NCBI GenBank assembly: GCA_963742735.1
Contig: CAVUMN010000003.1
Span: 307,317 to 371,316 of the forward strand
DNA: 64,000 bases
Origin: an uncultured Actinomycetes bacterium
Lineage (GTDB): Bacteria > Actinomycetota > UBA4738 > JBBDTT01
Reading direction: 5' to 3'
Shown: positions 30,230 through 58,982 of the stretch, piece by piece
Layout: each line of letters opens with the position of its first letter
Position numbering within the stretch: position 1 is the stretch's first letter
Position numbers and translations under genes: made by a program
Notes under the pieces: generated by a model
The model's database searches: none
What the model was told of the DNA's origin: nothing
What the model saw: the letters and a program-made list of their open reading frames with translations, nothing else

Positions 30230-33079
30230 ATGTCCCAGGTTGCTCGCATGCCACGGCCCAGGCGGCGATGGCCCGTCATCGCGATCTCCGGTGGTGTCGG
30301 AGCCCTGATCGTCCTCGGCGGCCTGTCGGGCTTCTACACCAACCTCCTGTGGTTCAGGGAGGACGCGAAGCTCTCGTCCGTCTTCTGGGGGGTGTTCTGG
30401 TCCAAGGCCGTGCTGATCGCCGTCTTCGGCGCGGTGTTCTTCGCGCTGCTCTACGCGAACCTGCTGATCGTCAAGCGCTTCGCCCCCCGCTACCGCCTCT
30501 TCTCGCCCGAACAGGAGGTCGTCGACCGGTTCAAGGGGCAGATCGATCCGTACATGAATTGGTTGCTCCCGGGCGTGTCGCTGCTGTTCGCCGCGTTCGC
30601 CGCGCTCGGGGTCACCGGCCTGTGGGAGCGGTTCCTGCTGTGGCGCCACGGCGGGGAGGTCGCGTTCGGGCAGATCGACCCCCTGTTCGGTCGCGATCTC
30701 GGGTTCTACGTCTTCAAGCTGCCGTTCCAGCACTTCGTGCAGAGCTGGCTGTTCTCGTCGCTGGTCGTGATCACCATCGTCACCGCGGTCGCCTACTACC
30801 TGTGGGGCGGCATCCGGTTCCAGGCGATCGGCGAGAAGGTCACGCCGACGGTCAAGGCCCACCTATCGGTACTCCTGGGAATCATCGTGCTCGTCAAGGC
30901 TTGGGGATACCGGCTGGGGCAGTTCGACCTGCTCACCTCCGAGCGAGGGGTGGTGACGGGCGCGTCCTATACCGACGTCAAGGCTCAGCTGCCGGCCCTT
31001 CGCATCCTGGTCCCGATCGCGATCGTGTGCGCCGTGCTGTTCCTGGTGAACATCAGGTTCCGTGGCTGGGCCCTGCCCGCCATCGGGATCGGGCTTCTGG
31101 GGCTGACCTCGATCATCGCCGGCGGCGCGTACCCGGCCTTCGTCCAGAACTTCCAGGTCAAGCCGCAGGAGCTGCAGCGGGAGTCCGAGTACATTGATCG
31201 AAACCTGGAGTTCACCAACCGCGCCTACGGGCTGGACGGGATCAAGACCAGCCCGTTCCAGGTCGACGAGGACCTCACGGCCCAGGAGGTGCAGGACAAC
31301 CCCGCCACGATCAGCAACATCCGGCTGTGGGATCCGCTCACGCTCCAGCGCGGGTTCCGCCAGCTCCAGCAGATCAAGCCCTACTACACGTTCGACGACG
31401 TCGACGTGGACCGGTACACGCTCGAGAACGGGCAGCGCCGGGTGGTCATGGTCTCCGGCCGGGAGATCCAGCAGTCGGGGGTGCCCGCCGCGAACCAGTC
31501 GTGGCAGAACCTGCACCTGTTCTACACGCACGGGTACGGATACGTGGCCAGCCGGGTCGACCGGGTGACGTCCGAGGGGCAGCCCGACTTCGTGGTGAAG
31601 GACATCCCTCCGGCCTCGGTCCCCAGCGAGGACTTCGAGGTGACCGAGCCCCCCGGACCGAGGATCTACTTCGGCGAGCACGACGACGAGGAGTTCGTCG
31701 TGGCCCGCACCGGGCAGGAGGAGTTCGACCGGCCGGAGGGCACCGGACAGGGCGAGGATGCCACCGTCGTCTACGAGGGCGACGGGGGCGTCGAGGTCGG
31801 TGGGTTCTTCCGGAAGCTCGCCCTGGCGTGGAGGTTCCGCGACGTGAACCTGCTGATCTCGGGCCTGATCAAGCCGGACTCCAAGATCATGTACCACCGC
31901 ACCATCCGGGACCGGGTCGAGAAGGTCGCGCCCTTCCTGAAGTTCGACCACGACCCCTACATGGCGGTGGTCGACGGCCGGCTCACCTGGATCTGGGACG
32001 CTTACACCCACTCCAACGAGTACCCGTACTCACAGCGCCTGGAGCTGCAGAACGTGTCCGACCTCGAGGGTGAGGTCAACTACCTTCGCAACTCCGTGAA
32101 GGTGACGATCGACGCCTACGACGGGACGTTGCGGTTCTACGTGATCGACCCGACGGATCCGGTCATCCAGGCGTGGCAGGCCGCCTTCCCGGACCTGTTC
32201 ACCCCGGACGAAGAGGTCAGCCCGAACCTGCGGGAGCACTTCCGCTACCCCGAGGACCTGTTCAAGATCCAGGCCGCGCAGTACGCGCAGTACCACGTGC
32301 AGAGCGCGACCGACTTCTACTCCGGCCGCGACTTCTGGGCCCTGCCTCAGGATCCCGACCCGACGAAGACGAACGCCGAGACCCTCGACCCCTACTACGT
32401 GCTCATGCGGCTCCCGGGGGAGGAGCAAGAGGAGTTCGTGCTGTTCATCCCGTTCACCCCCAACGACCGCCCGAACATGATCGCCTGGTTCGCCGCCAAG
32501 TCCGACCCCGAGGGCTACGGGGAGCTCACCGCGTTCGACTTCCAGGCGGGCCAGAGCATCGACGGCCCGAAGCAGGTGTTCCAGCGGATCAACGCCGACA
32601 CGGAGGTGTCGCGGGAGCGGACGCTGCTCGGGCAGAGCGGCTCCAACGTCCTCTTCGGGAACCTCCTGACGATCCCCATCGAGAACTCGTTCCTGTACGT
32701 CCAGCCGATGTACATCGAGGCCAGTTCGAGCTCGGACCAGCAGGGCGCCATCCCGGAGCTCAAGCGGGTCATCCTCGTCCACGGAGAGACGGTGACCATC
32801 GCCGAGACGCTGCAGGAGGCCCTCGAGGCGTCGTTCGGCGAGGGCGGCGAGGAGCCTCCGCCGGAGGAGCCGGGTGTCGACCAGACGATCCAAGAGCTCC
32901 TCCAGGAGGCTCTGCAGCACTTCCGCAACGCCGAGCAGGCCCTGCGTGACGGCGACCTGGCCGAGTACCAGACCGAGCTGGCCGCGGCCCGCGCCGCGGT
33001 CGAGGAGGCCGCGCAGCGCTCCGCGGAGGCCTCGGGCGAGGAGCCGGCGCCCACCCCGACCGCTTCCCCGAGCGGCTGA
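30230..33079 (+). CDS. UPF0182 family large transmembrane protein
   Basis: 949 aa, N-terminal about 7 TM then large soluble domain; characteristic UPF0182 N-terminus ...SGFYTNLLWFREDAKLSSVFWG. Confidence 0.85.
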   Translation: MSQVARMPRPRRRWPVIAISGGVGALIVLGGLSGFYTNLLWFREDAKLSSVFWGVFWSKAVLIAVFGAVFFALLYANLLIVKRFAPRYRLFSPEQEVVDRFKGQIDPYMNWLLPGVSLLFAAFAALGVTGLWERFLLWRHGGEVAFGQIDPLFGRDLGFYVFKLPFQHFVQSWLFSSLVVITIVTAVAYYLWGGIRFQAIGEKVTPTVKAHLSVLLGIIVLVKAWGYRLGQFDLLTSERGVVTGASYTDVKAQLPALRILVPIAIVCAVLFLVNIRFRGWALPAIGIGLLGLTSIIAGGAYPAFVQNFQVKPQELQRESEYIDRNLEFTNRAYGLDGIKTSPFQVDEDLTAQEVQDNPATISNIRLWDPLTLQRGFRQLQQIKPYYTFDDVDVDRYTLENGQRRVVMVSGREIQQSGVPAANQSWQNLHLFYTHGYGYVASRVDRVTSEGQPDFVVKDIPPASVPSEDFEVTEPPGPRIYFGEHDDEEFVVARTGQEEFDRPEGTGQGEDATVVYEGDGGVEVGGFFRKLALAWRFRDVNLLISGLIKPDSKIMYHRTIRDRVEKVAPFLKFDHDPYMAVVDGRLTWIWDAYTHSNEYPYSQRLELQNVSDLEGEVNYLRNSVKVTIDAYDGTLRFYVIDPTDPVIQAWQAAFPDLFTPDEEVSPNLREHFRYPEDLFKIQAAQYAQYHVQSATDFYSGRDFWALPQDPDPTKTNAETLDPYYVLMRLPGEEQEEFVLFIPFTPNDRPNMIAWFAAKSDPEGYGELTAFDFQAGQSIDGPKQVFQRINADTEVSRERTLLGQSGSNVLFGNLLTIPIENSFLYVQPMYIEASSSSDQQGAIPELKRVILVHGETVTIAETLQEALEASFGEGGEEPPPEEPGVDQTIQELLQEALQHFRNAEQALRDGDLAEYQTELAAARAAVEEAAQRSAEASGEEPAPTPTASPSG

Positions 33080-33090
33080 TAGACTCGCTC

Positions 33091-33164
33091 TGCGGGGTGG
33101 AGCAGTCAGGTAGCTCGCTGGGCTCATAACCCAGAGGTCACAGGTTCAAATCCTGTCCCCGCGA
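33091..33164 (+). tRNA. tRNA-Met (anticodon CAT), initiator-like (three G:C pairs in anticodon stem)
   Basis: Cloverleaf read by eye: D-arm GAGC/GCTC, anticodon stem CTGGG/CCCAG loop CTCATAA, T-arm ACAGG-TTCAAAT-CCTGT, acceptor CCCCGCG; near-identical to E. coli tRNA-fMet; ends +/-1. Confidence 0.85.
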
Positions 33165-33168
33165 CAAA
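33123..33168 (+). repeat. attL: 46-bp direct repeat (3' half of tRNA-Met + 4 nt)
   Basis: CTCATAACCCAGAGGTCACAGGTTCAAATCCTGTCCCCGCGACAAA identical at 33123-33168 and 42476-42521. Confidence 0.85.
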
Positions 33169-33248
33169 GGAAACCGCAGGTCAGAGCGCCTGCGAGCGGA
33201 TAGCCGGCCCTCGGAGACCACGGTCCCGGGGGCCGATCTGCAAACAGA

Positions 33249-33887
33249 TTGCAAACGAGGCGGGGAGCGGTGGAGATCTGGGAGCTTTTGGGCGCGCTCC
33301 TGGTGGGGTTCATCCTCGGGGCATACGAACGCGGCCGAACGCTCGAAATCGCCGTGGCGGTCCAGAAGCTCGAGCGGCAACAACAGGCTCTACTCCGGGC
33401 CCGCGAGAGGCTTAGGGAGCTACTCGCCACCTTTGGCCGCGACGCCCAATCGGATCCGCGATTCGGACTGAAGGGACAGCCGGATCGAGAATGGCTAGCA
33501 GCCAAGGATGCCCAACTCGCCCGGCTAAGGGAGTGGTGGAGGGGCTGGGTCGATGAGACGGAGCTGGCCGTTTATGACGACCAACTGCTGGCCCGAGTGC
33601 ATGGAGTCATGGGAGAAGGCAGGGCGCGTCGTCGCTACCCGCTTCTCTGGGAAGCCCAGGATTCCCTCGCGCTCTATTCGCTCAAGCCTGATGTGGTCTC
33701 TGCCTCGCTGGCCAATCGACACCTTGAGTTGGCGATGATCGCGCTTGGATACATCGAGGATTTCGTCAAACAGGCGATCCGAAGGATGGAGCCTCCAAGC
33801 CGCAGAGGGGGGCTGGCCTCCGCGCTGATGCTCTGGACACGGCGAGCGTGGCGACGCCTTGATACGTGGCTTAGCTCCTCCCGCTGA
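33249..33887 (+). CDS. hypothetical protein (element-encoded, N-terminal TM)
   Basis: 212-aa ORF between attL and int; N-terminal hydrophobic helix. Confidence 0.4.
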   Translation: MQTRRGAVEIWELLGALLVGFILGAYERGRTLEIAVAVQKLERQQQALLRARERLRELLATFGRDAQSDPRFGLKGQPDREWLAAKDAQLARLREWWRGWVDETELAVYDDQLLARVHGVMGEGRARRRYPLLWEAQDSLALYSLKPDVVSASLANRHLELAMIALGYIEDFVKQAIRRMEPPSRRGGLASALMLWTRRAWRRLDTWLSSSR

Positions 33888-33902
33888 CGCCAGTCGTCCG
33901 AC

Positions 33903-35132
33903 CTACGCCTCGAGGATCATCGTGGCAACTCGGTTGGCTGCCTCCTCCTGAAGTCCCGCGATCGCGTGCGAGTACGTGTCCAGCGTGATGGAGACCGTCG
34001 CATGGCCGAGGCGCTCGCTTACGACCTTGGGATGAACGCCGGCGGCGAGGGCTGCCGTCGCGTAGGAGTGGCGCAGGTCGTGGAGTCTGATCCGGGGGAG
34101 CCCCGCGCCGCGAGCGTGACGGAGGAACTGATCGGCGAACGCCTCCGGGTGGATCAGGGAACCGTCCTCGCGGGTGAACACAAGGCCCGAGTCCTGCCAC
34201 GCCGGGCCCCATGCCATCCGCTCCTCAAGCTGGCGCTTGCGGTGCTCCCGCAGGCCGGCGACGGTGGCGGGGTCGAGGGCGAGCTGGCGGCGGCCCTTGC
34301 TGGTCTTGGGCTCTGAGGTCGCGGGCTTGCCGTCCACAACCACGAGCGTCTGTGTGATGGCCGTGCGGCCCGCGTCAAGGTCCACGTCCTGCCAGCGCAG
34401 CCCAAGGGCCTCGCCCCGGCGCATGCCGGTTGTGGCCAGCAGCAGCCACGCCCCGTAAAGCCGATCCTCCCGAACGTGGCCGAGGAACTGGCGCAGCTCG
34501 GGCGGAGCCCAGACGTTCATCTGGCGGCGTCCAACGCGGGGAGGGTCCGCAACCTCTGCGACGTTGCGAGTCACGCGCCCCCAGCGGAGCGCGTCCGAGA
34601 GCGCCTTGTGGATCACAACGTGAATGTTCCGGGCGGTCTTGGGGGAGAGGCCCTGGCCGTCGCGGCGTCCGTTGGCGAGCAGCCGGCCGTAGAACCCGTT
34701 GAGCGCGGCGGGGGAGAGCTTCTGCAAGGGCAGCGCACCCAGGGCCGGCACAACGTGCTTGTTGATATTCACGCGGTAGCTGGCCAGCGTGGTGGCCCGG
34801 ACGGTGGACTCGATCGCGGGCAGCCACTCCTCGAGGAGAAACTGCCCGAACGTGACCCGGCTCGGGGGGATGTACGTCCCGCGGTTCAGGCGGCCGAGGA
34901 TCTCGGGGAGCTCCTGCTGCGCCTCCCGCCGAGTCGGGAATCCGCCGTGCCATTGCTGGCGGCGCTCGTCCCGATCGGGGAGCAAGGCGGCTCCGCAGCG
35001 GGCGCAGTCATCGCGCCGGCCGTCCGCCGTCCAGTACCGGGTGCGGCAGGCAGGGCAGGACCGGGCGGGCTGGCGGCCCACGTCCACCACCACGGCCCAG
35101 GTGCTTCCGCGCTTCCGAACGTGACCCCTCAT
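33903..35132 (-). CDS. int: tyrosine-type site-specific integrase
   Basis: C-terminal catalytic RLHDLRHSYAT...HPKVVSERLGHATVSITLDTYSH (R..HxxR..Y); N-terminal arm-binding domain with CPACR...CARCG zinc ribbon; start Met44 of ORF computed at 35132. Confidence 0.9.
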   Translation of the reverse strand: MRGHVRKRGSTWAVVVDVGRQPARSCPACRTRYWTADGRRDDCARCGAALLPDRDERRQQWHGGFPTRREAQQELPEILGRLNRGTYIPPSRVTFGQFLLEEWLPAIESTVRATTLASYRVNINKHVVPALGALPLQKLSPAALNGFYGRLLANGRRDGQGLSPKTARNIHVVIHKALSDALRWGRVTRNVAEVADPPRVGRRQMNVWAPPELRQFLGHVREDRLYGAWLLLATTGMRRGEALGLRWQDVDLDAGRTAITQTLVVVDGKPATSEPKTSKGRRQLALDPATVAGLREHRKRQLEERMAWGPAWQDSGLVFTREDGSLIHPEAFADQFLRHARGAGLPRIRLHDLRHSYATAALAAGVHPKVVSERLGHATVSITLDTYSHAIAGLQEEAANRVATMILEA

Positions 35133-35770
35133 GACTTTGCCTTTCGCTTGCGGCCGGGCTTTGACCCGGCGGCCCTTCCGCGGCTCGTGGGGGGGAGCAG
35201 GCCCATTGCTCGGGCCCGTGCCACCCACTTGGCTGCGGCTGATTTGCTGACGTGGCCCCACTCCGCGACCCGGGCCGTTGGGTTCTTGAGGCCCGCCTTG
35301 AACGCTTCGGAGTAGACCCGGGCCACCTCGCGGAAGTGATCCGAGCCCAACGCGGGCGGCCGTCCAGGCTTGTTGCGGCGTGGGGTAGCGGCGAGGGCCC
35401 GCAAGGGCTTATCGGCGGCGAGCTGCTCTTGCCCGCTGCCGTGCTCGGAAACGTCGAGCAGATGCTCCGCGTACAACTCGAGCCGCTTGTCGATCAGCTC
35501 GGCGAGGGGCAGCTCGCGCTTGGTCGTCGCGGTCAGCCGGCGGAGGTCGCGGTCAGGGTGCCCCTTTGGCCTGCCATCCCGATCTGTATCGAAGGATCGA
35601 AGATCCAGCCCGACGCACTCCATCCGGCCATCGAGCTCGGCGAACCAGAGCGTTACGACCCACGGCCCCTTCCCGGGGTGCGGCCACAGGAACGAATCGC
35701 GCAGCCTGGGCACCTTGCTCATGCGTCGGGCCCGCTGGCTGTGGTACTCGAAGGTGCCCTCCTCGTTCAC
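35129..35770 (-). CDS. hypothetical protein upstream of and overlapping int (213 aa)
   Basis: 4-nt overlap with int start suggests co-transcription; no recognisable family. Confidence 0.5.
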   Translation of the reverse strand: MNEEGTFEYHSQRARRMSKVPRLRDSFLWPHPGKGPWVVTLWFAELDGRMECVGLDLRSFDTDRDGRPKGHPDRDLRRLTATTKRELPLAELIDKRLELYAEHLLDVSEHGSGQEQLAADKPLRALAATPRRNKPGRPPALGSDHFREVARVYSEAFKAGLKNPTARVAEWGHVSKSAAAKWVARARAMGLLPPTSRGRAAGSKPGRKRKAKS

Positions 35771-35790
35771 CCCCGCAGTCTATCCCGAGC

Positions 35791-35873
35791 GGGAACGCTT
35801 AGGCAACACGTTCCCTGAATATCCCCCTTGTTTGTGCTCGGAATTAGGGGTAAGGCGTTGTCAGAGCGTTCCC
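35791..35873. promoter_or_regulatory. divergent promoter/operator region with GGGAACG / CGTTCCC inverted repeats
   Basis: GGGAACGcttaggcaacaCGTTCCC at 35791-35815 and another CGTTCCC at 35867-35873 between divergent hypothetical/int and XRE genes. Confidence 0.4.
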
Positions 35874-35894
35874 TAACCCCTACCGTGCCGAGGC

Positions 35895-36122
35895 ATGGAC
35901 GACGAACTGATGCAGGTGTCGAGGGCTCGGGCTCTGGTGAGCAGCGGGGCCGCTCGCTCGGTGCGGTTGGGCGCACGTCTCTCACTCTGGGAGCTGGCAG
36001 GGCAGATCGGATGCGCGCCCTCCACGGTCCTCCGGTGGGAACGGGGCGATCGCATTCCGCGGGGCGGCCTGGCTGTGCGCTACGTCGAAGCCCTGGACAC
36101 GCTGATGAAGGCCGCCCAGTGA
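35895..36122 (+). CDS. XRE-family (Cro/CI-type) HTH transcriptional regulator
   Basis: LSLWELAGQIGCAPSTVLRWERGDRIP typical HTH_XRE. Confidence 0.8.
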   Translation: MDDELMQVSRARALVSSGAARSVRLGARLSLWELAGQIGCAPSTVLRWERGDRIPRGGLAVRYVEALDTLMKAAQ

Positions 36123-36340
36123 AGGCTCTCGAGGACTACCCCCTGGTGATGCGGCCCGAGGAGGTCGCCGAGGCCCTTCGCTGCGGGCGGTCCTCGGTCT
36201 ATGAAGCCATCCGCCGGGGGGACATTCGAGCAGTGCGCCTTGGCCGTCGCGTGCTGGTTCCCAGGGCCGCGCTGGAGGAGCTTCTGGGTATCCAGGGAGC
36301 GGCGCAGCCGGCTTCGGTTTCCGAGGAGAGTGGGGCATGA
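36119..36340 (+). CDS. xis: excisionase/AlpA-family HTH DNA-binding protein
   Basis: GTGA overlap with XRE gene; LVMRPEEVAEALRCGRSSVYEAIRRGDIRAVRLGRRVLV is excisionase-family HTH. Confidence 0.7.
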   Translation: MKALEDYPLVMRPEEVAEALRCGRSSVYEAIRRGDIRAVRLGRRVLVPRAALEELLGIQGAAQPASVSEESGA

Positions 36341-36720
36341 CGGAGCCGGGCGACGTGCTCGCCGAGGTCATCAGCTTCCGCCGGGCCGCTCGGGCCATCG
36401 TCCGCGACGCATCGCTGGACAGGCACCAGAAGTACGCAGCCCTGATGCGACTGGCGATCCTCGCCCGTACCGAGGCTGCATTCCCGCGAGCGGCGCAGGG
36501 AGTCGTCGCTGATGAGGCGATCCCGCTACTGCATCCCGGGATGCATCCGGCACCGATCGACCCGGCAGAGCGGGAAGCGCGGCGACTTCGCGCCCAAGGC
36601 TACGGGAGCTGCCCGACGTGCCTCCGGTCGCTTCCCACGAACGCCGAGCTTGACCGGTGGAGGCGGCTGGCGGAGGACGCTGCGATGCGAGCGGCTCGCC
36701 GGGAGGCTCTGGTTCCGTGA
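36337..36720 (+). CDS. hypothetical protein (127 aa)
   Basis: ATGA overlap with xis-like gene; C-terminal CPTC motif. Confidence 0.5.
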   Translation: MTEPGDVLAEVISFRRAARAIVRDASLDRHQKYAALMRLAILARTEAAFPRAAQGVVADEAIPLLHPGMHPAPIDPAEREARRLRAQGYGSCPTCLRSLPTNAELDRWRRLAEDAAMRAARREALVP

Positions 36721-38012
36721 GCTCCACCGAAACCGAGCTGCTCGACCGGGTGAAATCGAACCTGCCCCCGGCCGTGCTCCCTGCCCCCGAGGGCTGGCCA
36801 CGGCTGGACCCGGCCGCCCGGTACGGGCTGGCGGGCGAGTTCGTCGCAACCGTTGAGCCACACACGGAGGCGGACGCGGTTGGGCTGCTGGTGGACTTCC
36901 TCACCGCGTTCGGCTCCGCCGTTGGCCCTGGCCCTCACGTCGAGGCAGACGGCGCTCGCCATGCCGGCGCACTGTTCGCCCTCCTGGTGGGCAACACAAG
37001 CCGGGCTCGGAAGGGAACTGCCCGGAAGCAGGTCGCTCGGTTCTTCGAGGGGGCGGATGCGGCCTGGGCGACGGGATGCGTCAAGGGCGGCCTGGCGTCG
37101 GGCGAGGGACTGGTGGCCGCGCTCCAGGATCCGCCAGAGGGCGAGGGCCGGCGAGACCCCCGCCTGCTTCTGGTTGAGGAGGAGTTCGCCCGCCTCTTGG
37201 CCGCTGCCGGGCGTGAGGGCTCAACGCTGAGCCACGTTGCACGCCAAGCCTGGGATGGCGGCCCGATCGCGGTGCTCACCCGCAAGGACCCGCTGAGCGC
37301 TTCGCCGAGTCACGTCTCGCTGATTGGCCACGTCACCGAGGAGGAGCTGCGCCGGCGACTGAGCTCGACCGAGGCCGCGAACGGGTTCGGCAACCGTTTC
37401 CTGATCGTCTTGGTACGGCGCTCAAAGCTGCTGCCGAGCGGGGGCCGGCCTGCCGAGGGGGACTTTGTTCGCCTGGTTCGCTTTATTCGCAACCGGTTGG
37501 AGGACGCCAGGAGACACACGCTGATCCAGCGCTCTCCCGATGCGGAGGGGTTGTGGGCGGACCTGTATCGAAGGATGGCCGCCGAGGATGAGCCCGGGAT
37601 GGTGGGCGCACTTCTCGCCCGTGACTCCGCCCAGCTCCTCCGCCTTTCTCTGGTGTACGCGCTTACCGATGCCTCTCCGACGATCGAGGTCCCGCACCTA
37701 GAAGCGGCTTGGGCCCTGTGGCAGTACTCGGCGGAATCGGTGCGGCACATCTTCGGGACCGTGCTGGGGGACGAGACCGCCGATCGGCTGTACGCGGCGA
37801 TCCTGGAGATGGGGGCAAAGGGCCTCGATGGAAAGGGGCAGCACGCCGCGTACGGCCGGCATGTTGACGGGGCGGAACTCGACCGGGCCCGGGCCGAGCT
37901 TGAGGAGCGCGGCCTGATCGTGACGCTCAACGTGGACACGGGTGGCCGGCCCCGCCTGGTCTCCTACGCGAAAGAAGCGAATAAAGCGAAAGAAGGTCCC
38001 CGTGGCCCGTGA
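36717..38012 (+). CDS. large element-encoded protein, possibly DUF3987-like (replication-associated?)
   Basis: GTG start overlapping previous stop (GTGA); 431 aa; family assignment by weak recollection only. Confidence 0.5.
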   Translation: MSSTETELLDRVKSNLPPAVLPAPEGWPRLDPAARYGLAGEFVATVEPHTEADAVGLLVDFLTAFGSAVGPGPHVEADGARHAGALFALLVGNTSRARKGTARKQVARFFEGADAAWATGCVKGGLASGEGLVAALQDPPEGEGRRDPRLLLVEEEFARLLAAAGREGSTLSHVARQAWDGGPIAVLTRKDPLSASPSHVSLIGHVTEEELRRRLSSTEAANGFGNRFLIVLVRRSKLLPSGGRPAEGDFVRLVRFIRNRLEDARRHTLIQRSPDAEGLWADLYRRMAAEDEPGMVGALLARDSAQLLRLSLVYALTDASPTIEVPHLEAAWALWQYSAESVRHIFGTVLGDETADRLYAAILEMGAKGLDGKGQHAAYGRHVDGAELDRARAELEERGLIVTLNVDTGGRPRLVSYAKEANKAKEGPRGP

Positions 38013-38436
38013 GGCTGACATTGCCGAGTTCGAGGCAGCGCTAGAGCGCGGCGTGGTGGAGTTCGCAGAGCTTGCCGCCCAGGGCGACTGGGGGCGTGCT
38101 GAGACACAGCTCGGCGTGGTGTTTGGAATCGCCTGGCTCGTGAGCGCGTACGCCGATCGTGCGTGAGAGCTCCCAGGCCAAGGGCCGGCGCTACCTACCC
38201 GAGGGCCCGGCGGTATGTCCGAACGGCGGGGCCCGGCGGTATTCGAGAATCCGGGCGCTTCAAGCGCTACGACCTGCCCGTTTTCGGGCCTGCCCAGGAA
38301 TGAGCGACCAGGGATTCTGGATCGGAGTGGCAAGCGAGGCGGCGGAGGATGCCGAGCAGCGTTGAGGAAGTCAAGGCGGGCGCTTCTTGCCAGGTGCACC
38401 GGAACCATTGACATGTCTCGCGGCAGAGGCGTACAA

Positions 38437-38886
38437 ATGAGCTTGGTGAAAAGCGCTCTGGCAGGCGGAAAGAGATCGATCCTCGTTGCCGCTTTCTTGC
38501 TCGCGGTCGTCGGCTTTGCGGCAGTGCTAACTGCTAGCGGGGGGGCGGAGGACTCGTCGGGCCTCGACTGCCCCGATGGATTTCGTAACACAGCGGTCTT
38601 CGAGCAAGGGGCTGAGTACGCCCCGTCGCCGGAAGATTCCGTGATGCGGACTGAAATACTTACGCAGCTGTTTGACCTACCACCGCAGGAGCGCCGCATG
38701 GGTACTGGCGGATCCGCTCGAGGCGGTATCGTCCGCTCAGACAACCGAGGCAGGCCGGACCGGGCTTCCTTTCAAGTCTTCCTGGACTCAAAGCCGCGTG
38801 CTTTGGTGACTTCAGTTCTCGTGGAGCCTGGCAAATGGCGTGTTACCACCGTTGAGTACTGCCCAAGCGCGGGTTCCTCCGACTGA
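38437..38886 (+). CDS. secreted hypothetical protein (signal peptide), low-GC cargo
   Basis: MSLVKSALAGGKRSILVAAFLLAVVGFAAVLTASGG signal/TM; local GC clearly lower than flanks. Confidence 0.5.
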   Translation: MSLVKSALAGGKRSILVAAFLLAVVGFAAVLTASGGAEDSSGLDCPDGFRNTAVFEQGAEYAPSPEDSVMRTEILTQLFDLPPQERRMGTGGSARGGIVRSDNRGRPDRASFQVFLDSKPRALVTSVLVEPGKWRVTTVEYCPSAGSSD

Positions 38887-39670
38887 CATGAACCCCAACA
38901 TCGCCCCGCTTGATGCGAATGGCAAACGAGTGTGGCGGGGCCTTGAAGGACTTACCGTATTTGCGTGGGCGATCCTTCTGGCCTTTGGCCCCGTCACGAT
39001 GGCCTATGCCCATTCAGTAGATCAATTCTGGGGTCCCGAGTGGGCAAACCAGGATAGGGGAACAAGCAAGCAGCATTTTTCGGTGACCGAAGAGGTCCCC
39101 GGAACGACGTCTTCCGCGACTTGGCCCCTGCGCGTCTACCAAGGGTCAGTAAGGTGGAACAACGTAGACATCGTCGATCCGGACATGTCATTCGGCGTAA
39201 AAGCCGCCATCGTCGCCAACTACAGCCCTTACAATCATTGCGGCTCGGACTACTTCTTTGAGAACGGCATGCACTACCGTGATGTCGCCGGGGACTCTTT
39301 GGCCGTGACGATCGTTTGCACCCAGAACACGATTTGGGGAGACCAGATTCGCAACTACCAAATGGTCTTCGACCCCAATGCCACTACGTGGTACACCGGA
39401 TCGGACCCCGATGCGGTGCCGTCCGGCTCAATGGATTTGATATACGTCGCTTCTCACGAGTTCGGCCACGCCGCTGGTGGCTGGAGCGATGACACTCCTG
39501 GCGGTCACTATGACTCGGCCAACAACAGCTTACTTTGCGGCATAGGTGTACCGGTGATAGATAGGCACACGATGTGCGCTTCAGCGACAGCCGGGCGGAC
39601 GCTTGACTCGAGGGCGCTCGAGTATCACGACGTCGACGTTTTCATCGAGGTCTACGATTTCGGCGGTTAG
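38887..39670 (+). CDS. secreted HExxH zinc metallopeptidase-like protein (metzincin-like)
   Basis: ATG directly after upstream TGA; N-terminal TM/signal (LTVFAWAILLAFGPVTMAYA); LIYVASHEFGHAAGGW motif; low GC. Confidence 0.6.
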
Positions 39671-39818
39671 GCTGAGGTTCAGCGCTTCGGGGGATCCCGG
39701 CGAGTGCGGGTCGGACGCCACGCTGACGGCCAGGTAACGAATGACAGATCGTCGGGGATCCGGGCAGCAGCGCGTTACTCGCCCGCCTGAAGACCAGCCG
39801 AATGTAGCCGCCGAGCCT

Positions 39819-40232
39819 TCAGCCATCGGCGAGGATCTCCCTGACTCGAGCCTCGCCGAGATGCTTCTCGAGCGTTTCTAGACGCCGCTGCCGATCCTTC
39901 TGCTCCCGCTCCCACTCCTCCCACCACTCGTCGAATTGGTCGCGTAGCACCTCCGAGCCCGGTTCGGTGCGCGGTGGGCTGGCCTCCTTCGCCACCGGCC
40001 CCAAGACACGCTCTAGAACCGTGGTAGCGGCGCGCAGACGGAGGCGCGGGTCCTCCGCATCGAGCAGGTCCACGAGCGTGGTGGCGGCCTTGTCCGCGTG
40101 GAGCTCGAGCCGCTCGAGGGTTTCCCCGATCCGATCTAGCCGGCGGCGTTCACGCTCGGCCGCACCAAGGACACCGTTCGCTTTGGGATCGGGACCGTCC
40201 GGGGAGCCGAAGGGCTTGCCTCGCACGGCCAC
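39819..40232 (-). CDS. hypothetical protein, paralog of 40252..40701 (FGxPDGPDP motif)
   Basis: Shares FGSPDGPDP...ERERRRL with neighbour's FGQPDGPDP...VRERRL; coiled-coil-like charged C-terminus. Confidence 0.5.
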   Translation of the reverse strand: MAVRGKPFGSPDGPDPKANGVLGAAERERRRLDRIGETLERLELHADKAATTLVDLLDAEDPRLRLRAATTVLERVLGPVAKEASPPRTEPGSEVLRDQFDEWWEEWEREQKDRQRRLETLEKHLGEARVREILADG

Positions 40233-40251
40233 CTGTCCGTTGCCGCTGTCG

Positions 40252-40701
40252 CTAATGGGGCCCCTCCGCTTGTTCGTGGGCTTCCATCTCGGCCAGCAGT
40301 TCGTCTACACGGCGGGAGAACTCGCCACGGGAGGTGTGCTCGATGTGCTGGTCGGCCTGGCCTATGGCCTGCTCAACTAGCCACCGGGCGTTCTGGGTGC
40401 GGATGGACCACGCCTCTTCGCCTTTGCGGGTGGCCCCCTTGATGGCCTCGAGGATGGTCTGGACAGCGCGAGGGGCGTTGAGGATCAGGGCTTGGCGGGT
40501 CTGGTCACGTCGCTGCTCGAGCCGGCGCTCCCTCACCTCGGTGGCTTTCCTGGCAGCCGCTACAGGATCGGGTCCGTCAGGCTGACCGAACCGGGTTCTA
40601 GAGCCCGCGTCACGCGGTCTGACCTGCTCATTCGCGGAGGCTCCCACGGCTCGATCGTATGGCCGGGGGGCGTTTGCATCGCGTTTGCGAGCCCCGAACA
40701 A
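40252..40701 (-). CDS. hypothetical protein, paralog of 39819..40232
   Basis: See above; tandem duplicated pair. Confidence 0.5.
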   Translation of the reverse strand: MFGARKRDANAPRPYDRAVGASANEQVRPRDAGSRTRFGQPDGPDPVAAARKATEVRERRLEQRRDQTRQALILNAPRAVQTILEAIKGATRKGEEAWSIRTQNARWLVEQAIGQADQHIEHTSRGEFSRRVDELLAEMEAHEQAEGPH

Positions 40702-40816
40702 AGGCCCGTTTACCTGCGGTTATGGGGAACCCTCTGGGTTGCTCACCCACTAGTTTGAGGTCCCCATTGACCATGGCGGAACCAGCGGCCGAGGATGGGG
40801 GATCGCGGGGGGCAGT

Positions 40817-41188
40817 ATGAGGCAGTACACGCAAGAAGAGCACGAGGCAGTCAGCCGAGCGATGAAGGACTTCTTTCGCGAGGTGGCCTCGCGCTTCGAG
40901 CACGTGGCCTTCCGAGACGATCTTCCCGGGCCCAGTGGCGAGCCGGGGGGGATCATCGAGCTCCGCTGTGAGCTTCCGGGTACCAGTCGGATTGCGGCGC
41001 TCGTCGGCGCGGATCAGATCGACCTATACCTCGGTCAGAGGACTTGGTGGGAGTTCCTACCCAGGTGGAAGGATCGGGGTCCCGAGCGGATGATTGCCCG
41101 GGTTCGCAACGCCATCGAAGACGTCGTGGCCGGGCGATTCAAGGAACGCATTGGATCTCGGATCGTGCGATATGCCCCGTACAGATAG
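40817..41188 (+). CDS. hypothetical protein (123 aa)
   Basis: RBS GGGGGG upstream of ATG; no family recognised. Confidence 0.45.
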   Translation: MRQYTQEEHEAVSRAMKDFFREVASRFEHVAFRDDLPGPSGEPGGIIELRCELPGTSRIAALVGADQIDLYLGQRTWWEFLPRWKDRGPERMIARVRNAIEDVVAGRFKERIGSRIVRYAPYR

Positions 41189-41223
41189 CTGATCGCGGAG
41201 GGACTATTGCGACTCGGCCACGC

Positions 41224-41772
41224 ATGAGAAAGCGAATCGGATCGGTGAGCCTCGCTCTTCTGGTCGCGTGCTCTGGCCCGGACAGTCCTCCCCAAGCCGA
41301 GCCCAGCGCCGCGCCGGCCAGTCCCTCCCCATCACCAGCGGTAGCGCTCTTGGACTTGGGGCAGGAGGGCAGCACAGCTGGCGGGACGCGAGTGACCGTC
41401 TACTCGGTCGCCCCCTCGAGTCGGAATGGCTACTCGCCACCGAGCGGGAGCACATGGCGCATCGCGGACACCAGGCTTTGCGCCTCGCTAGAGCAGCCTG
41501 GCCAGATCGGAGTGGGGCTGGTGGCGAGCTCGCAGTTCGTCGCCGAGAGTGCGGACGGGAGTTCCTACGCGGTGGACAGCGCCGGCGTTCTGTCGAACGA
41601 GCTGATGGCGCAACCCACACGGCTGCTCGATCCGGGCGAGTGCATCCGGGGACTGTTGGTGTTCGCTCTCCCGGCGCGGACGCCAGTTGCATCCGTTGTG
41701 TTCCTGGCAGCCAGCAGCCCCGATCCAGGCTCCGGCCTAACCGCGGCGATGAGGTGGCTCGTGCCGCGCTGA
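41224..41772 (+). CDS. lipoprotein (DUF4352-like beta-sandwich?)
   Basis: Lipobox LALLVACSG; start computed from ORF frame. Confidence 0.55.
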   Translation: MRKRIGSVSLALLVACSGPDSPPQAEPSAAPASPSPSPAVALLDLGQEGSTAGGTRVTVYSVAPSSRNGYSPPSGSTWRIADTRLCASLEQPGQIGVGLVASSQFVAESADGSSYAVDSAGVLSNELMAQPTRLLDPGECIRGLLVFALPARTPVASVVFLAASSPDPGSGLTAAMRWLVPR

Positions 41773-41849
41773 ACCGAGGGCCCGCCGTCGCTTTTCGCCC
41801 GCTTTTTCGCCAGTCAAAATGGCCCCCGCTCGGCCAGGGTCACCCATTT

Positions 41850-42313
41850 TGACCTGCGGTTTCTGTTGAGCCGGGCTCCAACGGACCTGGCCCCGCTAGA
41901 CCGATGCTTCTAGCATGCTGACCTGCGCTTTCCCCCCAGTTTCGGCCCAGTTCCGCGCCACCGAACTGGATATTGGGGTGGGGCCCCCTGCACGCCCCGC
42001 GTCACGCGGCCTGACCTGCGGTTTTTGGGAGAACGCTTCTACCGTTCTGACCTGCGGTTTTCATGGGGCTTGGCTTCATCCGAGCGACCTGCAACAACCC
42101 GCCCCCAAGCCGTGGATGATCCACGCTGACCTGCGGTTTTGGGTCGCCGGGGCGTCATGCGATGAACCCTTCCGACCTGCGGTTATCCCGTGGCCCCCCC
42201 CTACCCGCCGGTTCTACCGGTCTGACCTGCGGCTTTCGTGTGTCGTGGGCCCCCAACCCCCGTGCTTGTGAGGCACTAGGCTTTCGAGCGATGATCGTTC
42301 GTGACCTGCGGTT
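41850..42313 (+). repeat. cluster of nine direct 13-bp repeats TGACCTGCGGTTT (iteron/arm-site-like), noncoding
   Basis: Copies at 41850, 41919(v), 42012, 42048, 42085(v), 42127, 42173(v), 42222, 42301; three share extended TGACCTGCGGTTTTTGGG. Confidence 0.8.
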
Positions 42314-42475
42314 TTTGGGTCGCCGATCCCGCCGTCGATGCAAACGCTCTGCAAACGAACGCCGCACGTTCAAGCCTCGGCGAGACGGACGGGGGTGGAC
42401 AGGACGAGATGTGTTCCCGCACGGCCCAGCACGGGGCCGGACGCGACCTAGCTTGAGCGGACAGCGATCAGCAAA

Positions 42476-42521
42476 CTCATAACCCAGAGGTCACAGGTTC
42501 AAATCCTGTCCCCGCGACAAA
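42476..42521 (+). repeat. attR: duplicated 3' 46 nt of tRNA-Met followed by native terminator hairpin
   Basis: Identical to 33123-33168; followed by GAAGCCGCAGGtcacgcaCCTGCGGCTTC hairpin. Confidence 0.85.
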
Positions 42522-42617
42522 CGCGAAGCCGCAGGTCACGCACCTGCGGCTTCTCGCGTTGAAGGGGCGAATCCCCGGAGTCCGCGGCGGGTATGAACCA
42601 GGGAGGAGGTGGTCGTC

Positions 42618-42860: not shown

Positions 42861-43185
42861 CCCGAACGGGCTGGTCCCAGACCCACCAGGAAGGGGCGCT
42901 CGGCGCCCCTTCCTCCCGTTTGATCCCTTCTGTGCCTCCCGACCCCCCTGCTTACGGGCCATTTTTCTCCCGGGAGGGCGTATCCCTCGTGCTCCCGCGG
43001 CGCTTTGACGGAATAAGAAAGTCGGTTGCCGAAGGGGACTTCCCTACGGCCCGAGTCGAGAGGTCTGTTCGTATGACGGAAGCGTGGTCCCGAGTACTCG
43101 CAGCGGGGGTCGGTTTCTGCTACCGTCCGGCCTCGAGCGGGCGAGGACCCGGACGGCTCCGCGTCCCCGATGGGAGGTGTTCGGT

Positions 43186-44298
43186 TTGAAGACGAAGTTT
43201 CGTGTTCTGGTCGGGGCGGCGGCGTTCGTCGTACTGACCATTTTTGCGCTCTCCCCCGCGATGGCGGCCCCTGCGGGCAGCTATTCGGGAGTGGCGGACG
43301 GGACGGCACTGTCGCTCTCCGTTTCCACAGGCGGCGACCCGATTCTGTCGGTCGACGCCGGTATCACGCACGCTGAGGTCGACTCCTCGCCGCACGCGGC
43401 AGGGTCGGGCGCCGGCCTCGTTCAGCTTCCGGGAACGATTGCTGAGACCGACGCTCCGCCGGACGACACCAAGTCGGCCGAGCTCCTGAGCGTGCCGATC
43501 GGGGACCCGAACACCGCCGGCCTTGAGGTCGGAGTCGCGCGCGGAAGCTCCACGTCCGAGACCACGGGCGACCCGAGCTCGAGGAACGTCGGTGAGCTTC
43601 TCGCCGTCAACCTCAACGCGGCCAACCTGCTGGGGACGAACGACTTCGCGGTCCGCAGCACGGCGGACGTGGTCGTCGACGGCCAGCTGGTCACCGCGAC
43701 CGGTCACTCGGACGAGGTGGTCATCACCCTGGCGCTCGGTGACGAGCTCGTGTCTCCGGTGTGTGACCTGCTCGACGCTCTGCCGCTCGGCCTCGGTGAG
43801 GCCTGTGACAGCGCGGTCGACCAGGTTCAGCTCCTGACCACGGTCATCACCGTCAGGATCCTTCCGGCGACGGTTGAGTGCGTCTACGACGGCAACACCG
43901 GACTGGCGAGCGTTCCGACGGCTGAGGCGGCCCTTCTGACCGTCCAGCTGTTCGACGCGGAGCCCATCGCGGTGAGCGCCGGCCAGACGATCGACCTGCT
44001 CGACGGTACCCCGCTGCACATCCACGCCATCGTGAGCGACGTGTCCACGGTCGTGGAAGGCAACAGTGCGAGCGCCCGCGCAAGCGGCCTCGTGGTGGAG
44101 CTCTTCGAGGATGTGCTTCCACAGGTGCGTCTCGCGGCGTCCGACGTGACGTGCGGTGTCTCCGGCGAACTGCCGGTCGAGCCGCCGCCGGTCCCGCGGA
44201 CCCCCGTGACGGGTGGAGCTCTCCCGCCGATCATGCTCGGCGCGGCGGCTCTCGTCCTGGTGGGTCTCGGGGCGCGGAGGTTCGCGAAGGTCGCCTAG
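43186..44298 (+). CDS. secreted cell-surface protein with C-terminal hydrophobic anchor + basic tail
   Basis: TTG start after RBS GGGAGG; signal LKTKFRVLVGAAAFVVLTIFALSPAMA; C-term ...TPVTGGALPPIMLGAAALVLVGLGARRFAKVA. Confidence 0.7.
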   Translation: MKTKFRVLVGAAAFVVLTIFALSPAMAAPAGSYSGVADGTALSLSVSTGGDPILSVDAGITHAEVDSSPHAAGSGAGLVQLPGTIAETDAPPDDTKSAELLSVPIGDPNTAGLEVGVARGSSTSETTGDPSSRNVGELLAVNLNAANLLGTNDFAVRSTADVVVDGQLVTATGHSDEVVITLALGDELVSPVCDLLDALPLGLGEACDSAVDQVQLLTTVITVRILPATVECVYDGNTGLASVPTAEAALLTVQLFDAEPIAVSAGQTIDLLDGTPLHIHAIVSDVSTVVEGNSASARASGLVVELFEDVLPQVRLAASDVTCGVSGELPVEPPPVPRTPVTGGALPPIMLGAAALVLVGLGARRFAKVA

Positions 44299-44338
44299 GC
44301 GACCGGACCGATACCTTCCTACCCAGGGAGAATTTCAA

Positions 44339-45078
44339 ATGACGCGGGACGACAGTTGGATCAACGGCGAGGACGTCCCGCCGAAGGCAGAGGGCTCGGG
44401 GCGCCGCGGCGACAGCCGCCGCGGCGCCTCCGGTCCGCCGGCGGACACCCGATGGCGCAAGCGCAAGGGGGTCCGTAGGGCCCTCAACACGCTCTCGGTG
44501 GTCCTGGTCCTCGGTGGTGTCGGCCTCCTCGCCTTCCCGTTCGCCACGAACATGTGGGCGGACCACCGGCAGGGGGAGCTGGCGCAGGAGTTCGGACGCG
44601 AAGAGCTCCGCAGCGCGTACGTGCAGCACACCATCAAGCCGGGGCAGGCGCTGACCCGCCTGCGGATCCCCAAGCTCGGGGTGGACACCATCGTCGTCGA
44701 GGGGACCACGCCCTCGGCGCTGCGGGCAGGATCGGGGCACTACGAGAACACCGCCCTGCCGTGTGAGAAGGGCAACGCGGGTATCGCCGGGCACCGGACG
44801 ACCTACTCGAAGCCCTTTGCGAACATCGACAAGCTTCGACCGGGGGACCAGATCATCCTGGAGACCCCGATCGGGAAGTGCTGGTACGAGGTGGAGAAGA
44901 TGCCGTGGACGACCGACCCGTTCGACTGGACCATCGTGAAGAACGTCGGTGGCGCTCGTCTGACCATGTCGGCGTGTCACCCGCCGGGGAGCGCCGCCCA
45001 GCGGCTGGTCGTCCGGTCCAAGCTCGTCCGGACCCAGTTCCGCACCGAGGACGGCACGTTCGTGGACGCGGTGCAGTG

Positions 45079-45079
<1 letters not shown>
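44339..45079 (+). CDS. srtE: class E sortase
   Basis: N-terminal TM, GNAGIAGHRTTY (His), LTMSACHP (TLxTC-like Cys), RLVVRSKLV (Arg). Confidence 0.8.
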
Positions 45080-58382: not shown

Positions 58383-58982
58383 ATGGCGACCGACGAGCCC
58401 CACCTCGTGATGCACGAGCTGCACCGCCGGGCGGGGGAGACCTTCAACGCAGTTCTCCGGCAGGCGAACGGGACGGACTGGCATGCCCCGACGCCGTGCG
58501 GGGAATGGGACGTTCGCGAGCTCGTTCACCATGTGGTCTCCGGCAACCTCTGGGTGCCCCCACTCGTGGCCGGCGAGAGCCTCGCCGAGGCGGGAGCACG
58601 CCTCGACGGCGACCTGCTCGGGGACGATCCGATCGGGGTCGGGCTGGCCTCGACCGTGGCGGCCACCGCGGCGTTCGATGAGCCCGGCGCCCTGGAGCGA
58701 ACGGTGGAGCTCTCGCGCGGGCCGTCTCCGGCCCTGGACTACTGCGCCGAGCGGATGAACGACCTGGCGATCCACGCCTGGGACCTGGCCGCGGCCCTCG
58801 GGGTCACCGTCGAGCTCGACCGCGAGTGCATGGCCGCGGCGACGGCGTACCACCGGCCGCAGGAGGCAGTGGGGCGGCCCGCAGGGATGTTCGGTCCGCC
58901 GGTCGATGTCGCGCCGGACGCCGATCCACAGACCCGCTTCCTGGCGTTCTGGGGCCGACGCGCCGACTGGGCCCCCGAATAG
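58383..58982 (+). CDS. DinB/YfiT-like (mycothiol-dependent maleylpyruvate isomerase N-terminal domain, TIGR03086-like) protein
   Basis: HELHRRAGETFNAV...WDVRELVHHVV family signature. Confidence 0.65.
   Translation: MATDEPHLVMHELHRRAGETFNAVLRQANGTDWHAPTPCGEWDVRELVHHVVSGNLWVPPLVAGESLAEAGARLDGDLLGDDPIGVGLASTVAATAAFDEPGALERTVELSRGPSPALDYCAERMNDLAIHAWDLAAALGVTVELDRECMAAATAYHRPQEAVGRPAGMFGPPVDVAPDADPQTRFLAFWGRRADWAPE

Follow-up and report, generated by a model that had tools for sequence, protein, structure and literature searches.

Much is known about the phage satellites of Proteobacteria and Firmicutes and, as far as we are aware, very little about those of Actinobacteria. Among the described kinds, phage-inducible chromosomal islands (PICIs) and the pathogenicity islands of Staphylococcus aureus (SaPIs) measure about 10 kb, carry an integrase at one end and use a specific chromosomal attachment (att) site; they oppose a repressor-position gene to divergent XRE/Xis genes, and they combine a replication protein with small-terminase-like genes at the far end while lacking capsid, tail and lysis genes. 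The cos-type satellites (P4 and the SaPIbov5 type) carry sequence typical of the cohesive-end (cos) regions of their helpers. Here we describe a 9.35-kb island that occupies an initiator-like tRNA-Met gene in a 64-kb stretch of DNA from an uncultured actinobacterium (the whole stretch is called the window below), that has this layout and that repeats, about ten times, a short motif found close to one genome end in hundreds of actinobacteriophages. With a confidence only a little above even, we suggest that this island is a PICI-like, helper-dependent phage satellite, which would excise, replicate and be packaged by the terminase of a helper phage.

The PICIs and SaPIs come nearest to the island in their layout and presumed mechanism, and the cos-type satellites resemble it in carrying phage-end sequence. 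As known here from its genes, it has the structural features of a PICI (that is, a length of 9.35 kb, a divergent switch beside the integrase gene, int, and no virion or lysis genes). It departs from the PICIs and SaPIs in its host, an actinobacterium that is probably Acidimicrobiia-like, in a replication protein that is a primase-less DUF3987 helicase-like protein, and in small terminase (TerS)-like genes that form a duplicate pair on the opposite strand. Whereas cos-type satellites hold one complete helper cos, the island reiterates a short cos-proximal motif about ten times, and it has no homologues of sid, psu, delta or ccm. The P4 alpha protein has a DUF3987-like helicase module, and P4 has iteron clusters; the island has just the helicase-like DUF3987 part and an AlpA-like gene, with no PHROGs or Pfam match to the P4 core genes sid, psu, delta, epsilon and full primase-helicase alpha. 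Actinomycete integrative and conjugative elements (AICEs, for example pSAM2 and SLP1) share with it an actinobacterial host, a small size, and a tyrosine integrase with Xis at a tRNA 3' end, but an FtsK/SpoIIIE-type TraB transfer domain and an AICE-type replicase (RepSA, RepAM or Prim-Pol) are absent from every open reading frame (ORF) of the island. It is therefore neither P4-like nor an AICE, since the core genes of both are missing.

Small integrative elements of the kind to which the island belongs are widespread. With a profile of the island DUF3987 protein, 80 genomic loci in many phyla were retrieved, more than 20 of which place the gene inside a 6–15-kb segment bounded by tRNA-derived direct repeats of 21–70 bp, and the module of an HTH_17 gene (a helix-turn-helix, HTH, family), a small gene and a DUF3987 gene recurs beside integrases. 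The island has the same module, size range and type of repeat, and its small size is thus normal for such elements rather than a sign of decay. What sets it apart is that its phage-end motif is reiterated and its TerS-like genes are duplicated: a comparable motif array was present at none of 87 DUF3987 loci, and the cargo and the integrases of these islands differ as well. The tRNA-bounded DUF3987 segments come from Nitrospirota, Acidobacteriota, Chloroflexota, Proteobacteria and others (for example, L002, L009, L013, L032, L046, L047, L053 and L070). Near one DUF3987 locus, in a metagenome-assembled genome from Planctomycetes (L036, 1092–1852), 11 copies follow one another every 69 bp, in an array that resembles clustered regularly interspaced short palindromic repeats.

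Borders and gene content of the island

A sequence-only reading of this DNA had proposed a block of about 9.4 kb bracketed by a perfect 46-bp direct repeat (the 3' part of the tRNA plus 4 nt), and this proved exact (Table 1), the two copies agreeing at 46 of 46 positions across the block 33123–42521. The repeat runs from the first base of the anticodon loop to 3–4 nt beyond the tRNA, so that the left copy is part of an intact tRNA gene and the right copy is a 3' fragment. This tRNA-Met (CAT) gene is the sole tRNA found by ARAGORN in the whole window; its anticodon stem reads GGG/CCC, and position 1:72 is a U-G wobble as against the canonical initiator C x A. The expected arrangement of an intact tRNA at the left junction (attL) with int about 740 bp away was also borne out, the integrase stop at 33903 lying 735 bp from the core on the minus strand.

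The strongest available evidence for site-specific insertion at these borders is a metagenomic contig (L271, 7.5 kb, without a tRNA) whose integrase is 93% identical over 409 aa to that of the window and whose homologue of the adjoining 213-aa protein is 58% identical. Contiguously, this contig reads the right-end flank of the window (with the 23-nt stretch GCAAACGCTCTGCAAACGAACGC and, immediately ahead of the core, GCAAA), then the 46-bp core, and then about 110 bp near-identical to the left-end flank, which is the attP predicted by the two ends of the island. This order supports the assignment of attL and attR by sequence comparison, and we regard the insertion in tRNA-Met as precisely bounded and integrase-mediated; an empty attB would be expected to read tRNA-Met and then directly CGCGAAGCCGCAGGTCACGCACCTGCGGCTTC. 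Inside each element end lies one TGCAAAC-N4-TGCAAACGA pair. There are just two such pairs in the 64 kb and none in 100 shuffles; because of this occurrence and of the arm-binding domain of the integrase, they appear to be the best candidates for its arm-type sites. As the sequence-only reading had noted, both cores are followed by CCGCAGGTCA (33173–33182 and 42528–42537), which at attR forms part of a hairpin that is probably the native tRNA terminator; a simple terminator and promoter scan gave nothing above chance.

Table 1 Features of the island and its junctions (window coordinates)
Feature	Position	Strand	Basis
tRNA-Met (CAT), initiator-like, intact at attL	33091..33165	+	ARAGORN; Rfam RF00005, 65 bits
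attL core, 46-bp perfect direct repeat	33123..33168	+	repeat family D7; also in the middle of attP in L271
Single inverted copy of TGACCTGCGGTTT motif, 4 nt after the core, P' arm	33172..33184	-	same place in L271 attP
TGCAAAC-N4-TGCAAACGA pair, candidate arm-type integrase site, P' arm	33239..33258	+	conserved in L271 attP
212-aa ORF between attL and int, coding status uncertain	33249..33887	+	no family match
Tyrosine integrase, 409 aa, N-terminal arm-binding domain	33903..35132	-	PF00589, PF14659, PF14657; phrog_1 2e-68
213-aa protein overlapping the int start, repressor position	35129..35770	-	no Pfam or PHROGs family match
XRE-type HTH regulator, cro-like position	35895..36122	+	PF01381, PF13560
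Excisionase/AlpA-like HTH_17 protein	36119..36340	+	PF12728 2e-13; phrog_66
127-aa conserved partner of the DUF3987 gene	36337..36720	+	homologous 139-aa gene at the same place in L084
Predicted DUF3987-type helicase-like replication protein, 451 aa, without primase domain	36657..38012	+	homologues; phrog_5311 helicase 2e-8
Low-GC cargo: secreted 223-aa ORF and 276-aa HExxH metalloprotease-like ORF (38840–39670)	38240..39750	+	GC; comparison with L084
TerS-like paralogue 1, 137 aa	39819..40232	-	BLASTP E 1e-8 to the 149-aa ORF
TerS-like paralogue 2, 149 aa	40252..40701	-	61% identical to P0122; synteny
Motif variant (ATAACCGCAGGTAAAC) and GCAAAC-N4-TGCAAAC pair, upstream of TerS-like gene	40665..40724	-	homologous to L271
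Lipoprotein-like cargo gene, signal ...LALLVAC/SG (slash, cleavage mark)	41224..41772	+	ORF translation; no family match
Array, 8 direct copies (at most 1 mismatch) of TGACCTGCGGTT(T)	41850..42314	+	repeat families D1–D6; pattern scan
TGCAAAC-N4-TGCAAACGA pair, candidate arm-type integrase site, P arm	42339..42358	+	23-nt stretch across the pair identical in L271 attP
attR core, second 46-bp repeat copy, tRNA 3' part only	42476..42521	+	repeat family D7
Host hairpin GAAGCCGCAGGT-CACGC-ACCTGCGGCTTC after attR, contains motif	42524..42552	+	sequence; motif match

Next to the left border the genes form a switch of the lysogeny type, in which the 213-aa gene and int lie on one strand, divergent from the XRE and HTH_17 genes. 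Pfam bears out the tyrosine integrase, XRE and AlpA/Xis-like assignments that had been made from the letters; the integrase matches Phage_integrase, SAM_3 and Arm-DNA-bind_4 (that is, catalytic, SAM-like and arm-binding domains). Homologues of the 213-aa protein sit between int and a divergent XRE/Prim-Pol module in a prophage (L268), and from this position it may act as the repressor. Naming the 451-aa protein DUF3987-like holds through its homologues and not through a direct match, as a Pfam search found no PF13148 at E<=0.01: the protein has at least 1000 homologues, the 120 listed are 46–77% identical and many carry PF13148/DUF3987, those at 50–61% identity have a precomputed PF13148 match, and some carry a fused Prim-Pol, Toprim or DnaB domain. 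With its matches to phage helicase/primase PHROGs, it is predicted to be a primase-less helicase-like replication protein.

The two TerS-like genes, which the sequence-only reading had not singled out, belong by sequence comparison to a rare family (seven matches among 1.84 billion representatives) that occupies the TerS slot in phages. One member, P0122, overlaps the start of the large terminase subunit (TerL; phrog_2, 4e-37) in a phage locus (L267) that continues downstream with portal, protease and capsid genes, and another, P0160, is placed in the same way at the start of TerL in a second locus (L270), the TerL proteins of the two loci being 83% identical. The member in the attP-bearing contig L271, P0161, weakly matches a TerS family (phrog_2538, 3e-4), and the best natural match of the family profile in the PDB is a small terminase (7joq), also weakly (E 0.03). 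The segment upstream of P0161 is homologous to the one upstream of the longer TerS-like gene of the window, and both read a motif copy followed by a GCAAAC-N4-TGCAAAC pair.

The lower-GC cargo region that had been pointed out is there as well, with a GC content down to 0.57–0.59 at 38750–39750 as against 0.68–0.72 around it. DNA similarity to the closest relative (L084, whose DUF3987 protein is 77% identical) ends at about 38240, and a small SWIM-zinc-finger-type gene that is intact in this relative (2160–2396) is truncated in the window (38159–38365). Both L084 and L271 occur in the sequence data set SRR22868766. As the end of similarity, the break in the SWIM gene and the fall in GC coincide, the low-GC segment is taken as a replacement of the backbone. 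Its 276-aa HExxH ORF weakly matches a metalloprotease family (NF038122), and to its right lies, among others, a 123-aa ORF. Searches of the island ORFs against Pfam, PHROGs and NCBIfam returned no capsid, tail, lysis, conjugation or defence family, in line with the earlier remark that no capsid, tail or conjugation genes are visible, and PADLOC found no match in the cargo. Gene content and borders alike support the earlier class of a satellite or PICI-like, defective or minimal element rather than a full phage or an AICE.

The island is flanked on its left by a gene for a UPF0182 membrane protein (30230–33079). On its right (43084–45079) come a gene for a secreted protein of 404 aa, whose C-terminal tail is hydrophobic, and then a sortase gene.

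A repeated motif shared with phage genome ends

What had been read as a hairpin sequence after each core is the reverse complement of a motif, TGACCTGCGGTT(T), that recurs about ten times in the island, eight of these copies forming the array near the right end. The array copies start at 41850, 41919, 42012, 42048, 42127, 42173, 42223 and 42302 (plus strand), with one further degenerate copy at 42086, and their spacing is irregular (36–93 bp). Outside the array, likewise with one mismatch at most, copies lie at 40710 (plus strand), upstream of the longer TerS-like gene, after the left core (Table 1), and in the host hairpin after attR (42527, minus strand). At two mismatches or fewer, the window holds 16 matches as against 4.7 expected, clustered in the array. 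In front of each array unit stands a short palindrome with unit-specific arms (ATGC-TTCTA-GCAT, CCGG-TTCTA-CCGG, CCGCG-TCA-CGCGG, TGGA-TGA-TCCA and others). A structured RNA in the array was considered and rejected (no Rfam match; fold z-scores of -0.5 and -0.9), and an identity of ACCTGCGGTT with helix 45 of 16S rRNA was dropped as actinobacterial 16S differs there. The whole array has no blastn match among the phages.

Two consensus copies searched by blastn against 50,697 cultured phage records matched 816 of them, and the hosts, where named, are all actinobacteria (among them those of 672 Mycobacterium, 83 Gordonia and 39 Streptomyces phages). In a sample of 60 records spread evenly over the 816, the motif lies 21–131 bp from the right genome end in 48, mostly at about 52 bp, within 1 kb of the left end in 4, and internally in 8; right-end phages include the Faith1/Rumpelstiltskin, Kostya, Omega, Giles and DLane types (example positions are 69117–69227 in NC_023732.1, 75741–75759 in EU816591.1 and 58827–58845 in NC_042317.1). 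When the ends of Rumpelstiltskin, HH92 and Dubu were read, the cohesive end lay about 60 bp beyond the last motif copy, and in two of the three the palindrome CCCCCTGGGGGG came after that copy. Many unrelated actinobacteriophage clusters have the form (c)TGACCTGCGGTT(a/t)t, in one orientation or the other, at a distance of about 52 bp from the right cohesive end, with 1–3 copies per phage as against about ten in the island. The searchable literature yielded no description of the motif in a phage context.

A pattern scan of uncultured sequences for two motif copies 20–50 bp apart gave 49 viral and more than 120 metagenomic stretches, 76 of which also keep the 5' T that the pattern left unspecified, often with flanks gcctc...tt(a/t)tg. 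Among the genes within 3 kb of such pairs, the largest cluster is the terminase large subunit (13 loci), with P27-type small terminases, HNH endonucleases and portals also recurring, and in viral contigs the pairs sit between HNH and TerS/TerL genes. Two low-GC viral contigs (L133, 4300–8100, and L098; GC 0.37) have about ten copies of ACCTGCGG in a near-ORF-free 4-kb stretch with TTAGCAA-type repeats, and because of these copies the motif is not confined to high-GC phages; L133 has no blastn match among the phages. Other repeats were seen in passing: three DnaA-box-like TGTGGATAA repeats in the last 100 bp of Arthrobacter phage Seahorse (L262), inside the right end and after an HNH gene, and a longer repeat, GAGTCGAAGGACCTGCGGTTG, in several copies per contig in three metagenomic contigs (L224, L163 and L209; GC 0.57–0.59).

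Some simpler accounts of where the motif occurs were rejected. It is not private to DUF3987 islands, given the lack of an array in the 87 loci and the motif loci that have no DUF3987 gene; it is not generally tied to tRNA or att sites, as few motif loci have a tRNA nearby; and the ends of viral contigs do not serve as cos markers, since the start of one (L113) is internal by comparison with phage Dubu.

Satellite, minimal element, remnant or integrase sites

Among a satellite, a defective prophage and a minimal element, we favour the satellite because of the reiterated motif and the TerS-like ORFs. The island, inserted by its tyrosine integrase at the segment from anticodon loop to 3' end of the tRNA-Met gene, would stay repressed in the chromosome; upon infection by, or induction of, a helper phage, Int and Xis may excise it through the 46-bp core, after which it would replicate with its own helicase-like protein and be packaged in helper capsids, the TerS-like proteins and/or the reiterated phage-end motif capturing the helper terminase. 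We further offer, as a tentative idea that we think more probably wrong than right, that the motif is an undescribed recognition element common to actinobacteriophages (at packaging ends and in attP arms) and that the array is an amplified 'super-site' that captures, and perhaps titrates, the packaging machinery of many unrelated cos phages, which would give the island a broad helper range and interference. The partner that would bind the motif may be a terminase component or a sequence-specific architectural factor, both of which are compatible with the data.

Several observations count against packaging by a helper. The two genes are assigned as small terminases by synteny in two related loci and by weak profile matches; the AlphaFold model of the protein is poor (pLDDT, the predicted local distance difference test, of 64), Foldseek returned nothing informative for it, and the two phage loci that carry the family (L267 and L270) have no motif near terS. 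A single TerS family behind the motif is likewise unsupported, the small-terminase candidates of motif phages falling into several families. Neither a helper phage nor a cosN-like cleavage site was identified, the similarity of the sequence beside the motif copies of the window to phage cos junctions being no higher than in shuffles. Unlike in PICIs and SaPIs, no capsid-size, capsid-remodelling or Ppi/Rpp-type gene was recognised in the island, and the DUF3987 protein is without a primase domain. Finally, the motif is not exclusively a cos feature: in phage Taquito (L266, 33781–33801) it is flanked by paired GGGTACA repeats within the attP region, upstream of the integrase; in an actinobacterial element (L253, 13388–13520) four copies stand between int and an HTH_17 gene with flanking GTACACA pairs; and in four further loci (L090, L096, L169 and L172) a motif pair follows a primase/helicase gene amid element-specific iterons.

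These last positions bear on the best-surviving alternative, a possibility to which we give a minor but real share of belief, namely that the island is an autonomous minimal element, non-transmissible or passively transduced, in which the array binds a sequence-specific architectural factor, as a replication origin, an intasome scaffold or both, and has nothing to do with helper hijack. IHF sites serve lambda and provide an analogy for architectural-factor sites at cos, attP and ori. Such a factor would fit the placement of the motif between the core and arm-type repeats in the window, Taquito and L253, whose flanking repeats differ, as well as its iteron-surrounded copies beside primase/helicase genes, the iteron-like look of an array unit (motif plus short variable palindrome) and the unrelated TerS candidates of the phages that bear the motif. 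No origin was identified in the island, the array being a candidate. However, no array of this kind stands at any of the 87 DUF3987 loci, the irregular spacing of the copies speaks against this alternative, and mIHF, the integration host factor known from actinobacteria, shows no sequence preference in its binding (PMC3724605). A role in packaging fits better with the constant interval of about 52 bp that separates the motif from a physical genome end across many phage clusters, and the TerS-like genes would be left unexplained.

That the island is instead an immobile, decayed prophage, in which Int, Xis, the replication gene, the TerS genes and cos-proximal repeats remain after loss of the structural genes, seems to us unlikely. 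The absence of structural genes, the truncated SWIM-like gene with the cargo replacement at about 38240, and the phage character of TerS genes and cos-type motifs would all follow from such decay, but the att repeats are perfect, the int, xis and DUF3987 genes are intact, relatives with the same backbone are equally small, an attP form exists in a metagenome (L271), and the motif has been amplified well beyond the 1–3 copies seen in phages.

The remaining alternative, by which the motif would be the arm-type (or Xis) binding site of the island integrase and the array an unusually long P arm, we consider very improbable: the array does lie 160–630 bp from the core on the P arm with one inverted copy on the P' arm, the integrase has an arm-binding domain, and the motif adjoins int in L253 and Taquito, but the alternative is disfavoured because the closest relative (L084) keeps two motif copies despite a different, arm-less XerC-like integrase, and, further, in phages the motif lies mainly at the genome end, remote from int, the TGCAAAC pairs make better candidates, and L271 has the same Int without an array.

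Implications for actinobacterial satellites and phages

If it is a phage satellite as we suggest, the island adds a case from a high-GC lineage that has been little studied. The fixed position of the motif in hundreds of mycobacterial, Gordonia and Streptomyces phages is an independent lead. Should the motif prove to be a terminase or cos recognition element, it would open packaging specificity to experiment in the phages that serve mycobacterial genetics and therapy, it would be a simple sequence mark by which to find cos-type satellites in actinobacterial genomes, and it would suggest a form of hijack that works through reiterated sites rather than through a single cos.

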